From Escherichia coli (GTDB lineage Bacteria; Pseudomonadota; Gammaproteobacteria; Enterobacterales; Enterobacteriaceae), in NCBI RefSeq assembly GCF_003018255.1, contig NZ_CP027440.1: DNA of 64,000 bases; one strand, written 5' to 3'. Positions within the stretch are counted from its first letter, which is position 1, and each line of letters starts with the position of its first letter. Made by a program: the position numbers. Below are positions 1-6,000 of this stretch, in pieces.

Positions 1-3000
1 CAGCTGTCTGCACAGGAGAAATCCCTGCTGGCGCATAAAGATGAGACGCTGGAGTACAAACGCCAGCTGGCTGCACTTGGCGACAAGGTCACCTATCAGG
101 AGCGCCTGAACGCGCTGGCGCAGCAGGCGGATAAATTCGCACAGCAGCAACGGGCAAAACGGGCCGCCATTGATGCGAAAAGCCGGGGGCTGACTGACCG
201 GCAGGCAGAACGGGAAGCCACGGAACAGCGCCTGAAGGAACAGTATGGCGATAATCCGCTGGCGCTGAATAACGTCATGTCAGAGCAGAAAAAGACCTGG
301 GCGGCTGAAGACCAGCTTCGCGGGAGCTGGATGGCAGGCCTGAAGTCCGGCTGGAGTGAGTGGGAAGAGAGCGCCACGGACAGTATGTCGCAGGTTAAAA
401 GTGCAGCCACGCAGACCTTTGATGGTATTGCACAGAATATGGCGGCGATGCTGACCGGCAGTGAGCAGAACTGGCGCAGCTTCACCCGTTCCGTACTGTC
501 CATGATGACAGAAATTCTGCTTAAGCAGGCAATGGTGGGGATTGTCGGGAGTATCGGCAGCGCCATTGGCGGGGCTGTTGGTGGCGGCGCATCAGCGTCA
601 GGCGGTACAGCCATTCAGGCAGCTGCGGCGAAATTCCATTTTGCGACCGGAGGATTTACGGGAACCGGCGGCAAATATGAGCCAGCGGGGATTGTTCACC
701 GTGGTGAATTTGTCTTCACTAAGGAGGCAACCAGCCGGATTGGCGTGGGGAATCTCTACCGGCTGATGCGCGGCTATGCCACCGGCGGTTATGTCGGTAC
801 ACCGGGCAGCATGGCGGACAGCCGCTCGCAGGCGTCCGGGAAGTTTGAGCAGAATAACCATGTGGTGATTAACAACGACGGCACGAACGGTCAGATAGGG
901 CCACAGGCGCTGAAGGCGGTTTATGACGTAGCCCGTAAGGCGGCAATGGATGTTGTGACCGGGCAGATGCGCGATGGTGGTCTGTTCTCCGGAGGTGGAC
1001 GATGAAAACCTTCCGCTGGAAAGTGAAACCCGGTATGGATGTGGCTTCGGCCCCTTCCGTAAGAAAGGTGCGCTTTGGTGATGGCTATTCTCAGCGAGCG
1101 CCTGCCGGGCTGAATGCCGACCTGAAAACGTACAGCGTGACGCTTTCTGTTCCCCGTTGGGAGGCCACGGCGCTTGAGTCGTTTCTGGCTGAGCACGGGG
1201 GCTGGAAATCCTTTCTGTGGACGCCGCCTTATGAGTGGCGGCAGATAAAGGTGACCTGCGCAAAATGGTCGTCGCGGGTCAGTATGCTGCGTGTTGAGTT
1301 CAGCGCAGAGTTTGAACAGGTGGTGAACTGATGCAGGATATCCGGCAGGAAACACTGAATGAATGCACCCGTGCGGAGCAGTCGGCCAGCGTGGTGCTCT
1401 GGGAAATCGATCTGACAGAGGTCGGTGGAGAACGTTATTTTTTCTGTAATGAGCAGAACGAAAAAGGTGAGCCGGTCACCTGGCAGGGGCGACAGTATCA
1501 GCCGTATCCCATTCAGGGGAGTGGTTTTGAACTGAATGGCAAAGGCACCAGTACGCGCCCCACGCTGACGGTTTCTAACCTGTACGGTATGGTCACCGGG
1601 ATGGCGGAAGATCTGCAGAGTCTGGTCGGCGGAACGGTGGTCCGGCGTAAGGTTTACGCCCGTTTTCTGGATGCGGTGAACTTCGTCAACGGAAACAGTG
1701 ACGCCGATCCGGAGCAGGAGGTGATCAGCCGCTGGCGCATTGAGCAGTGCAGCGAACTGAGCGCGGTGAGTGCCTCTTTTGTACTGTCCACGCCGACGGA
1801 AACGGACGGCGCTGTTTTTCCGGGACGTATCATGCTGGCCAACACCTGCACCTGGACCTATCGCGGTGATGAGTGCGGTTATCACGGTCCGGCTGTCGCT
1901 GATGAATATGACCAGCCGACGTCCGATATCACGAAGGATAAATGCAGCAAATGCCTGAGTGGTTGTAAGTTTCGCAATAACGTCGGCAACTTTGGCGGCT
2001 TCCTTTCCATTAACAAACTTTCGCAGTAATCCCATGACACAGACAGAATCAGCGATTCTGGCGCACGCCCGACGATGTGCGCCAGCGGAGTCGTGCGGCT
2101 TCGTGGTGAGAACGCCGGAGGGGGAAAGATATTTTCCCTGCGTGAATATCTCCGGTGAGCCGGAGAAGTATTTCCGGATGTCGCCGGAGGACTGGCTGCA
2201 GGCAGAAATGCAGGGTGAGATTGTGGCGCTGGTCCACAGCCACCCCGGTGGTCTGCCCTGGCTGAGTGAGGCCGACCGGCGGCTGCAGGTGCAGAGTGAT
2301 TTGCCGTGGTGGCTGGTCTGCCGGGGGGCGATTCACAAGTTCCGCTGTGTGCCGCATCTCACCGGGCGGCGCTTTGAGCACGGGGTGACGGACTGTTACA
2401 CGCTGTTCCGGGATGCTTATCATCTGGCGGGGATTGAGATGCCGGATTTTCATCGTGAGGATGACTGGTGGCGTAACGGTCAGAATCTCTATCTGGATAA
2501 TCTGGAGGCCACAGGGCTGTATCAGGTGCCGTTGTCATCAGCACAACCGGGCGATGTGCTGCTGTGCTGTTTTGGTTCATCGGTGCCGAATCATGCCGCC
2601 ATTTACTGTGGTGACGGCGAGCTGCTGCACCATATTCCTGAACAACTGAGTAAACGAGAGAGGTATACCGACAAATGGCAGCGACGCACACACTCCCTCT
2701 GGCGTCACCGGGCATGGCACGCATCTGCCTTTACGGGGATTTACAACGATTTGGCCGCCGCATCGACCTTCGTGTGAAAACGGGGGCCGAAGCCATCCGC
2801 GCACTGGCCACACAGCTCCCGGCGTTTCGTCAGAAACTGAGCGACGGCTGGTATCAGGTACGGATTGCCGCACCGGCAGCGCCGTCTCGGATTGAGCTGA
2901 CACCGGGCTATTTTCAGATAACCGCCACGCCGCATCTTGCGGTTTATGATCCGACGGTACAATTTGAGTTCTGGTTCTCGGAAACGTGGATTACCGATAT

Positions 3001-6000
3001 CAGGCAGGTTGAAACCACAGCCCGCTACCTTGGCACGGGGCTGTACTGGATAGCCGCCAGTATCAATATCAAACCGGGCCATGATTATTACTTTTATATC
3101 CGCAGTGTGAACACCGTTGGCAAATCGGCATTCGTGGAGGCCGTCGGTCGGGCGAGCGATGATGCGGAAGGTTACCTGGATTTTTTCAAAGGCAAGATAA
3201 CCGAATCCCATCTTGGTAAAGAGCTGCTGGAAAAAGTCGACCTGACGGAGGATAACGCCAGCAAACTGGAGCAGTTTTCGAAAGAGTGGAAGGATGCTAA
3301 CGATAAGTGGAATGCCATGTGGGCTGTCAAAATTGAGCAGACCAAAGACGGCAAACATTATGTCGCGGGTATTGGCCTCAGCATGGAGGACACGGAGGAA
3401 GGCAAACTGAGCCAGTTTCTGGTTGCCGCCAATCGTATCGCGTTTATTGACCCGGCAAACGGGAATGAAACGCCGATGTTTGTGGCGCAGGGCAACCAGA
3501 TATTCATGAACGACGTGTTCCTGAAGCGCCTGACGGCCCCCACCATTACCAGCGGTGGAAATCCACCGGCATTTTCCCTGACACCGGACGGAAAGCTGAC
3601 TGCTAAAAATGCGGATATCAGTGGCAGTGTGAATGCGAACTCCGGGACGCTCAACAACGTCACGATTAATGAGAACTGTCAGATTAAGGGGAAACTGTCA
3701 GCCAATCAGATTGAAGGCGATATTGTCAAAACGGTCAGCAAGTCTTTCCCCCGCACGAACAGTTATGCCAGTGGCACCATCACGGTAAGAATCAGTGATG
3801 ATCAGAAATTTGACCGGCAGGTCATGATACCGCCAGTGTTATTCCGCGGTGGTAAGCATGAGAATTTCAACAGTAATAACCAACAGTCATACTGGTATTC
3901 AACCTGCCGGTTAAGAGTGACCCGCAATGGTCAGGAGATTTTTAATCAGTCCACGACGGATGCTCAGGGCGTATTTTCCTCAGTTATAGATATGCCTGCC
4001 GGACAGGGGACGCTGACACTGACATTCACCGTATCTTCATCAGGAGCGAATAACTGGACACCAACAACCAGTATCAGCGATCTGCTGGTTGTGGTGATGA
4101 AAAAATCCACAGCAGGTATCAGTATCAGCTGAATTTTATAACCCAGAACGGGCGTCAGAAATGACGCCTTTTTTATTGCAGAAAAGCGAGAGGTAATTAT
4201 GCGTAAACTTTATGCCGCCATTTTGTCCGCAGCCATTTGTCTGGCCGTATCCGGTGCGCCTGCATGGGCATCTGAACATCAGTCCACGCTGAGCGCGGGG
4301 TATCTTCATGCCCGGACCAACGTTCCCGGCAGTGATGATCTGAACGGGATTAACGTGAAATACCGTTATGAGTTTACGGATACGCTGGGGCTGGTGACGT
4401 CATTCAGCTATGCAGGAGACAAGAATCGCCAGCTGACCCGTTACAGCGATACCCGCTGGCATGAAGATTCCGTGCGTAACCGCTGGTTCAGCGTGATGGC
4501 GGGGCCGTCTGTGCGCGTGAATGAATGGTTCAGCGCGTATGCGATGGCGGGTATGGCTTACAGCCGTGTTTCGACTTTTTCCGGGGATTACCTTCGCGTA
4601 ACTGACAACAAGGGGAAAACGCACGATGTGCTGACCGGAAGTGTTGACGGTCGCCACAGCAACACGTCTCTGGCGTGGGGGGCTGGCGTGCAGTTTAACC
4701 CGACCGAATCCGTGGCCATTGATGTCGCTTATGAAGGTTCCGGCAGTGGTGACTGGCGCACTGACGGGTTCATCGTGGGTGTTGGTTATAAATTCTGATT
4801 AGCCAGGTAACACAGCGTTATGACAGCCCGCCGGTTCAGGCGGGCTTTTTTGTGGGGTGAATATGGCAGTAAAGATTTCAGGTGTACTGAAAGACGGCAC
4901 AGGAAAACCGGTACAGAACTGCACAATCCAGCTGAAAGCAAAACGTAACAGTACCACGGTGGTGGTGAACACGCTGGCCTCAGAAAATCCGGATGAAGCC
5001 GGGCGTTACAGCATGGACGTTGAGTACGGTCAGTACAGCGTTATTCTGTTGGTGGAGGGATTCCCGCCGTCACATGCCGGGACCATCACCGTGTATGAAG
5101 ATTCTCAACCCGGTACGCTGAATGATTTTCTCGGTGCCATGACGGAGGATGATGCCCGTCCGGAGGCACTGCGTCGTTTTGAACTGATGGTGGAAGAGGT
5201 GGCGCGTAACGCGTCCGCGGTGGCACAGAACACGGCAGCCGCAAAGAAGTCAGCCAGCGATGCCAGCACATCTGCCCGTGAGGCGGCAACCCGTGCGACT
5301 GATGCTGCAGGCTCAGCACGCGCAGCCAGCACGTCAGCCGGACAGGCCGCGTCGTCGGCTCAGTCAGCGTCTTCCAGCGCAGGAACGGCATCAACAAAGG
5401 CCACTGAAGCATCAAAAAGTGCTGCCGCTGCTGAGTCCTCAAAAAGCGCGGCGGCCACCAGTGCCGGTGCGGCGAAAACGTCAGAAACGAATGCGGCAGC
5501 GTCACAACAATCAGCAGCCACTTCTGCATCCACCGCGACCACGAAAGCGTCAGAAGCTGCCACCTCAGCCCGGGATGCGTCGGCTTCAAAAGAGGCGGCA
5601 AAATTATCAGAAACGAGCGCAGCCTCGAGCGCCAGTAGTGCAGCCTCCTCGGCAACGGCAGCAGGCAATTCCGCGAAGGCGGCCAAAACGTCTGAGACAA
5701 ACGCTAAGTCCTCTGAAACGGCAGCAGAACAGAGTGCCTCCGCAGCAGCAGGCTCAAAAACAGCGGCTGCATTATCTGCCAGTGCCGCGTCAACAAGTGC
5801 CGGGCAGGCCTCAGCCAGTGCCACCGCCGCCGGAAAATCGGCAGAAAGTGCTGCATCGTCTGCTTCAACAGCCACAACGAATGCTGGCGAAGCCGCTGTA
5901 CAGGCCAGCGCAGCAGCGAGGTCTGCTTCCGCAGCGAAGACATCCGAGACGAACGCGAAAGCGTCGGAAACCAGCGCAGAATCCTCAAAAACGGCTGCCG

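Follow-up and report, generated by a model that had tools for sequence, protein, structure and literature searches.

What becomes of a prophage in which two tail genes appear to have been merged into one? The question is raised by a 64,000-nucleotide stretch of Escherichia coli contig NZ_CP027440.1 (RefSeq assembly GCF_003018255.1), hereafter the window, in which an open reading frame (ORF) of 485 amino acids (aa) plus stop lies on the + strand at 2675..4132, inside a lambda-type tail gene row. An earlier reading made from the DNA without database searches (the sequence-only reading) had described this ORF as an apparent in-frame I'-'J deletion fusion, the beginning of tail assembly protein I (gpI) running directly into the end of host specificity protein J (gpJ), and had considered the tail tip of the prophage to be probably defective. 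The analysis presented here makes it very probable that the ORF is a pseudogene formed by a private deletion in the tail-tip genes of a lambda-like prophage integrated in icd.

In BLASTP comparisons with the reference lambda proteins (locus L004), residues 1-65 of the ORF are 100% identical to lambda gpI 1-65, and residues 63-484 match lambda gpJ 710-1131 with 76% identity, the tripeptide R-I-A falling in both alignments. Identity to lambda gpJ is approximately 95-100% until about J residue 972, after which the sequences diverge in the receptor-binding domain (RBD). The J segment equals the J of E. coli isolate 07-4299 except for one residue, R752W. Both parents are found intact in near-identical E. 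coli genomes, with I of 223 aa and J of 1132 aa. Chance resemblance is excluded by genomes that are base-identical elsewhere and carry both parents intact, and 2675..4132 is confirmed to be gpI 1-65 joined in frame to gpJ 713-1132. The sequence-only reading is thereby borne out in its main points: the first 60-65 aa that it had assigned to I are 65, its C-terminal third of J is 420 of 1132 aa (37%), and the portions that it had supposed to be deleted, most of I and the N-terminal two-thirds of J, are gpI 66-223 and gpJ 1-712. An alternative gene call starts from a downstream GTG at 2774, the codon that the NCBI pipeline uses for I, and gives a product of 452 aa. The parts of the fusion are as follows.

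2675..4132, + strand: I'-'J fusion ORF, 485 aa plus stop (ORF list, BLASTP)
2675..2869, + strand: I' segment (gpI codons 1-65), an incomplete N-terminal Lambda_tail_I domain (100% to lambda gpI 1-65)
2861..2870, no strand: deletion junction, a single copy of CGGATTGCCG, codons R-I-A plus G (repeat comparison with relatives)
2870..4132, + strand: 'J segment, gpJ codons 713-1132 plus stop (identity to the 07-4299 J; PDB 9wca residues 9-428; 8xcj, lambda gpJ 713-1132)
2879..3187, + strand: second Ig/FNIII domain of J (FNIII-2), complete (Pfam PF24489 Ig_J_second, model 2-104/105, E 1.9e-39)
2987, + strand: private substitution C to T, J R752W, within FNIII-2 (sole mismatch to the 07-4299 locus L001 in 2861-9000)
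3266..3649, + strand: central tail fibre (helical shaft / beta-prism) region of J (Pfam PF09327 Phage_Tail_Tip, E 1.3e-34)
3755..4129, + strand: C-terminal receptor-binding domain of J, 'A8' type (Pfam PF12421 Ig_GpJ_C)

Origin and age of the deletion

When the first 9 kb of the window are compared with complete E. coli chromosomes, many of them match at 99.9-100%, always in two pieces that span 11,673 bp. Isolate 07-4299 (L001), whose annotation has tail assembly protein I intact and gpJ at 1132 aa, allowed a base-by-base comparison. Window 1-2870 equals L001 1001-3870 with zero mismatches, and window 2861-9000 equals L001 6534-12673 with a single mismatch, at 2987. Between these pieces L001 has 2,673 bp (891 codons, in frame) that are missing from the window, and since 2,673 is divisible by three the product is a single ORF.

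The two L001 matches overlap by 10 bp, CGGATTGCCG, at 2861-2870, and the junction lies there, in agreement with the 2865-2880 interval that had been predicted for it. The 10-mer occurs twice in intact relatives, 2,673 bp apart (L001 3861 and 6534; 39139 and 41812 in locus L002 of strain JNE23-011), and two copies with the same spacing are present in lambda itself (L004 1960 and 4633). The parental copies lie at I codons 63-66 and J codons 710-713, and one copy, at 2861, is left in the window. The parental direct repeats, the one copy kept, the lack of any filler DNA and the identical flanks are those of a microhomology-mediated, slippage-type deletion. From the first three of these features we infer replication slippage or illegitimate recombination: a RecA-independent, microhomology-mediated event between the two CGGATTGCCG copies would have deleted the 2,673 bp and kept a single repeat copy. 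The repeat was also considered as a special sequence and rejected as such, as the parental I-J region contains 34 pairs of exact 10-mers (approximately 8 are expected at random) and slippage could have used many others besides CGGATTGCCG, whose presence in lambda is due to conservation of the coding sequence.

The junction is extremely rare. A 221-bp junction-spanning query was covered to at least 80% in none of the 5,426 RefSeq complete E. coli genomes, a set outside which the source assembly lies, and all matches ended at the junction. The junction 25-mer CAGGTACGGATTGCCGCACCGGCAG gave zero matches in IMG/VR and zero in JGI metagenome contigs. Among approximately 15 billion proteins, the exact 452-aa product with the GTG start was found as one record on one NCBI contig, of 4,892,666 bp, which shows that the deletion is part of a public assembly and is not something added to the window; the ATG-started 485-aa form was absent from that collection.

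An error in the assembly or consensus, the true genome having intact I and J and the deletion stemming from the assembler or a minority subpopulation, is the alternative that survives best, and it is still improbable. The junction is indeed on a single contig and in no other genome searched, and assembly is complicated by the several J paralogues of each E. coli genome (median 4 matching places). However, a 10-bp repeat is far below the word size of any assembler and too short for a collapse, and the sequence on either side agrees at 100% with the same prophage of the relatives, which means that no paralogue has been spliced in. The retention of exactly one repeat copy is a biological slippage signature, and in the rest of the 64 kb there are only 7 gap bases relative to JNE23-011, i.e., the assembly is not ridden with indels.

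JNE23-011 is the closest complete genome and is colinear over the entire window, with I and J intact. The deletion is the sole large difference between the two, which otherwise differ by 169 single-nucleotide polymorphisms (SNPs) and the gap bases already mentioned. Because this near-clonal relative keeps intact I and J, the deletion is very recent on the scale of strain divergence. As to R752W, the other cluster members examined carry R or Q at this position. Relaxed selection on the retained part of J was considered and rejected: one private SNP was observed there where the background divergence to JNE23-011 predicts approximately 0.16, a non-significant excess, and a single SNP is statistically uninformative.

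The SNPs relative to JNE23-011 are unevenly distributed. At approximately 32000-48000 (roughly umuDC-dsbB-nhaB-fadR-dadAX) there are 160 of the 169, and about 10 fall in the other 48 kb; the tract looks like an import by homologous recombination.

Domains lost and kept, and the fate of the tail tip

Six Pfam domains are recognised in the parent J, and the fusion holds exactly the last three. The breakpoint in J lies in the linker between two Ig/FNIII domains, at the Ig_J / Ig_J_second boundary.

gpJ 86-207: FNIII-A (PF24801); absent from the fusion
gpJ 330-496: Phage-tail_3 (PF13550); absent from the fusion
gpJ 610-714: Ig_J (PF24421), first Ig domain; absent from the fusion
gpJ 716-818: Ig_J_second (PF24489); complete in the fusion, aa 69-171
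gpJ 845-972: Phage_Tail_Tip (PF09327); complete in the fusion, aa 198-325
gpJ 1008-1132: Ig_GpJ_C (PF12421); complete in the fusion, aa 361-485
gpI 14-97: Lambda_tail_I (PF06805, 83 positions), model 2-83; in the fusion aa 14-65, model 2-51 only

On the I side the fusion thus has an incomplete Lambda_tail_I domain, and as the alignment to lambda gpI stops at 65, the hydrophobic helices H1/H2, the plug and the C-terminal strands that lock into gpJ (approximately 101-223) are gone with the rest of residues 66-223. On the J side, residues 1-712 are gone, and with them every hub domain as well as the first of the Ig/FNIII domains. What is present runs from the second Ig/FNIII domain through the helical shaft and central fibre to the RBD, with PDB matches to 8iyk_J 700-1131 and 9wca; the J receptor-binding C-terminus is kept whole, as the sequence-only reading had stated.

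In the assembly pathway established by the classical lambda genetics of Katsura, tail assembly begins from J and requires I. In the structures of lambda obtained by electron cryo-microscopy, the gpJ hub domains build the conical tip that continues the tail tube, and gpI (approximately 101/135-223) forms the plug and tripod within this tip, interlocked with the gpJ hub domains (PMC11101478, PMC10721106). Since the deletion takes away the gpJ hub domains and the structural portion of gpI, a phage with the fusion allele should make no tails. The prophage would be unable to make the conical tail-tip complex, the base from which lambda tails are built up, and would, on its own, give no infectious particles. 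With both I and J truncated, it has lost genes essential for particle formation, their essentiality being taken from lambda, and it can be scored as tail-defective.

The retained J module has close counterparts. It begins at residue 713, where the recombinant 'gpJ713' constructs begin as well (lambda gpJ 713-1132, PDB 8xcj/8xck; 'A8 gpJ 713', PDB 9wca/9wcb), and gpJ 713-1132 constructs have been solved as stand-alone chains (8xcj, 9wca). The natural deletion has thus cut J at the very domain boundary that was selected in structural work for making soluble gpJ fragments. Compared with 'A8 gpJ 713' (9wca), the fusion differs at a few lambda-type positions, all in the first third, and is 100% identical from approximately J 860 to the end, the whole RBD included. 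In the A8 chimera the C-terminus comes from the gpJ of a natural E. coli phage, and DNA is delivered via OmpC, not LamB (PMC11338833). By this identity the J of the prophage is assigned to the OmpC-using 'A8' receptor-binding type. Isolated phages, PhiR29_2 among them, have the same C-terminal module at 97-99%.

Binding to the receptor LamB is reported for the lambda gpJ713 fragment (PMC11101478), and it is a reasonable expectation, for this reason, that the fusion product, if made, would be a free folded fibre. Given late transcription, the product of approximately 53 kDa would fold into a free, trimeric fibre whose RBD is of the OmpC type and which would have no route into a tail, as befits the product of a pseudogene.

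Could such a fibre nevertheless be of use? It might be a selected new gene, expressed as a free trimeric OmpC-binding fibre and thus a natural equivalent of gpJ713, which would serve either as a receptor-masking decoy released at lysis to block OmpC-dependent phages or as a reservoir of an RBD module that recombines into co-resident lambdoid phages. In favour of this are the in-frame fusion, the J part that begins exactly at a domain boundary and contains whole domains, the folding and receptor binding of the equivalent recombinant fragment (PMC11101478), and the identity of the RBD to a functional OmpC-using one (PMC11338833). Against it, the allele is a singleton and the near-clonal JNE23-011 is intact, leaving neither a sign of spread nor time for selection. 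No signal peptide or membrane segment was seen when the protein sequence was read directly, a predictor not being used, and the retained piece of I is a broken domain. The ORF has no promoter of its own in a consensus scan and lies within the late operon: on the + strand there were no promoter-like sites just upstream of the I start codon (2675) or from the junction to the stop, and counts in the scan were at the shuffle expectation. The private change R752W, already present, is non-conservative. We regard a selected new gene as very unlikely, even less credible than an assembly error. The ORF could also have been a complete protein from a separate family of shorter tail fibres, and the J part does align with some shorter 'tail fiber protein' families in PHROGs, but the idea has practically no probability left and is refuted by the intact parents and the alignments to lambda I and J, residues 1-65 being 100% lambda gpI and the remainder being, bar one residue, J 713-1132 of a genome with base-identical flanks.

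Several points weigh against the preferred reading of the ORF as a tail-tip pseudogene in a defective prophage. The deletion rests on one public assembly, and the loss of tail function is inferred from the structure and genetics of lambda. I and J could also be supplied in trans, or regained through recombination, from other lambdoid prophages, and JNE23-011 holds 4 places that match this tail region. Finally, an in-frame junction that is precise to a domain boundary may hint at retained function, but chance gives one in-frame deletion in three, and the boundary is fixed by the positions of the repeats, in lambda as well. The pseudogene is ordinary prophage decay and is found in one genome only. 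It is a clean and datable example of such decay, in which one slippage event between 10-bp repeats would have removed the whole tail-tip hub and a sister genome remains intact. For annotation, the ORF is best labelled as an I'-'J fusion pseudogene, not as 'host specificity protein J' or 'tail assembly protein'.

The prophage around the fusion

The prophage sits in icd. The window covers its right part, and the head, replication and immunity parts (the upstream two-thirds) lie outside. The icd gene is the attachment site of phage 21 and e14. The tail gene row and the genes up to the right end are as follows.

start of window: H (3' part), tail gene row
1002-1331: M, tail gene row
1331-2029: L, tail gene row
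2034..2777, + strand: K (C40 peptidase), intact; 100% identical to L001 3034-3777, annotated 'C40 family peptidase'
4150..4179, + strand: terminator-like hairpin plus T-run between J and lom (consensus scan only)
4199..4798, + strand: lom (Ail/Lom outer-membrane protein), intact, identical to relatives
4857..7778, + strand: stf (side tail fibre), intact, identical to relatives
7778..8362, + strand: tfa (tail fibre assembly protein), intact, identical to relatives
8466..12972: cargo between tfa and attR, namely DUF2971 (- strand), DUF4236 (- strand), a 209-aa ORF (+ strand) and DUF3800 (+ strand) (ORFs; annotation from a colinear relative)
13438..13605, + strand: icd 3' fragment, prophage right end, approximate (transferred from a relative, L003 6388-6555, 'isocitrate/isopropylmalate family dehydrogenase, partial')

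The retention of lom, stf, tfa and cargo, which the sequence-only reading had proposed, agrees with the finding that these genes, like K, are intact and identical to those of the relatives. Past the icd 3' fragment follow iraM, bluR and bluF, and then ordinary chromosome. The cargo DUF2971 ORF that adjoins tfa (8466-9269, - strand) has a match (best E 1.3e-20) to PDC-S31, a candidate family of single-gene defence systems in PADLOC.

The head genes of the same icd prophage are interrupted in two of the relatives. In JNE23-011 the portal gene is split by an island of approximately 10.9 kb (L002 16926-27837), the halves overlapping by 13 bp; in 07-4299 a different island of approximately 10-11 kb splits the major capsid gene (L005 7506-17864), with a 10-bp overlap. 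Island genes include a tyrosine integrase, a primase, a major capsid protein, a head decoration protein and a helix-turn-helix (HTH)/small terminase protein, and all that the two islands have in common is a capsid module of 2.7 kb, at 95%. Both look like capsid-forming elements of the phage-inducible chromosomal island (PICI) type inside a tail-proficient prophage. If the source genome of the window resembles JNE23-011, the prophage would already have been head-defective before the tail-tip deletion.

Strains such as 07-4299, A5 and S1-KEN-03-A are 100% identical to the window over 1-9000 and approximately 97.6-97.7% identical, in 3-5 pieces, over 9001-34000, which includes the last 4.6 kb or so of the prophage. 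Because the tail region is 100% identical and the adjacent 25 kb only approximately 97.6-97.7%, the comparison suggests that the prophage or its tail module may have spread recently between lineages.

Rfam and tRNA scans of the window returned nothing bearing on the fusion. The Rfam matches at gathering level were IS009 inside tfa (8121-8319, + strand) and the small RNA C0299 (31952-32030, + strand), both expected for E. coli. Outside the prophage, three genes are annotated as damaged in a relative: an autotransporter of the ECIAI39_1904 family as a pseudogene with an internal stop (L003 14581-17223; window approximately 22.5-25.2 kb), hlyE as truncated (L006 6452-6850; window approximately 31.5-31.9 kb) and cvrA likewise as truncated (L006 16344-18014; window approximately 41.4-43.1 kb).

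Comparison with known systems

With lambda gpI (PF06805; PDB 8iyk chain I) the fusion shares residues 1-65 and a start codon that overlaps K, the K/I overlap of the window being the same as in lambda. Unlike lambda gpI, it lacks residues 66-223, which hold the remainder of the N-terminal domain, H1/H2, the plug (159-175) and the beta-strands by which gpI reaches in between the hub domains of gpJ. From residue 66 to 485 the fusion runs colinearly with lambda gpJ 713-1132 (PDB 8iyk, 8xcg), comprising FNIII-2, the alpha-helical shaft, the central straight fibre and the RBD, whereas gpJ 1-712 are missing and the RBD is not of the LamB-binding lambda type. The gpJ713 constructs differ from the fusion at the N-terminus, where it has 65 gpI residues in place of a tag, and in origin, as it comes from a spontaneous prophage deletion. 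Cryptic lambdoid prophages of E. coli, for example DLP12, Rac, Qin and e14 in K-12, have decayed by deletion. Like them, the prophage described here lies at a classical attachment site, has lost essential morphogenesis sequence and keeps lom, stf, tfa and cargo; unlike them, it shows no extensive erosion, having one small, very recent in-frame deletion in a well-preserved tail operon.

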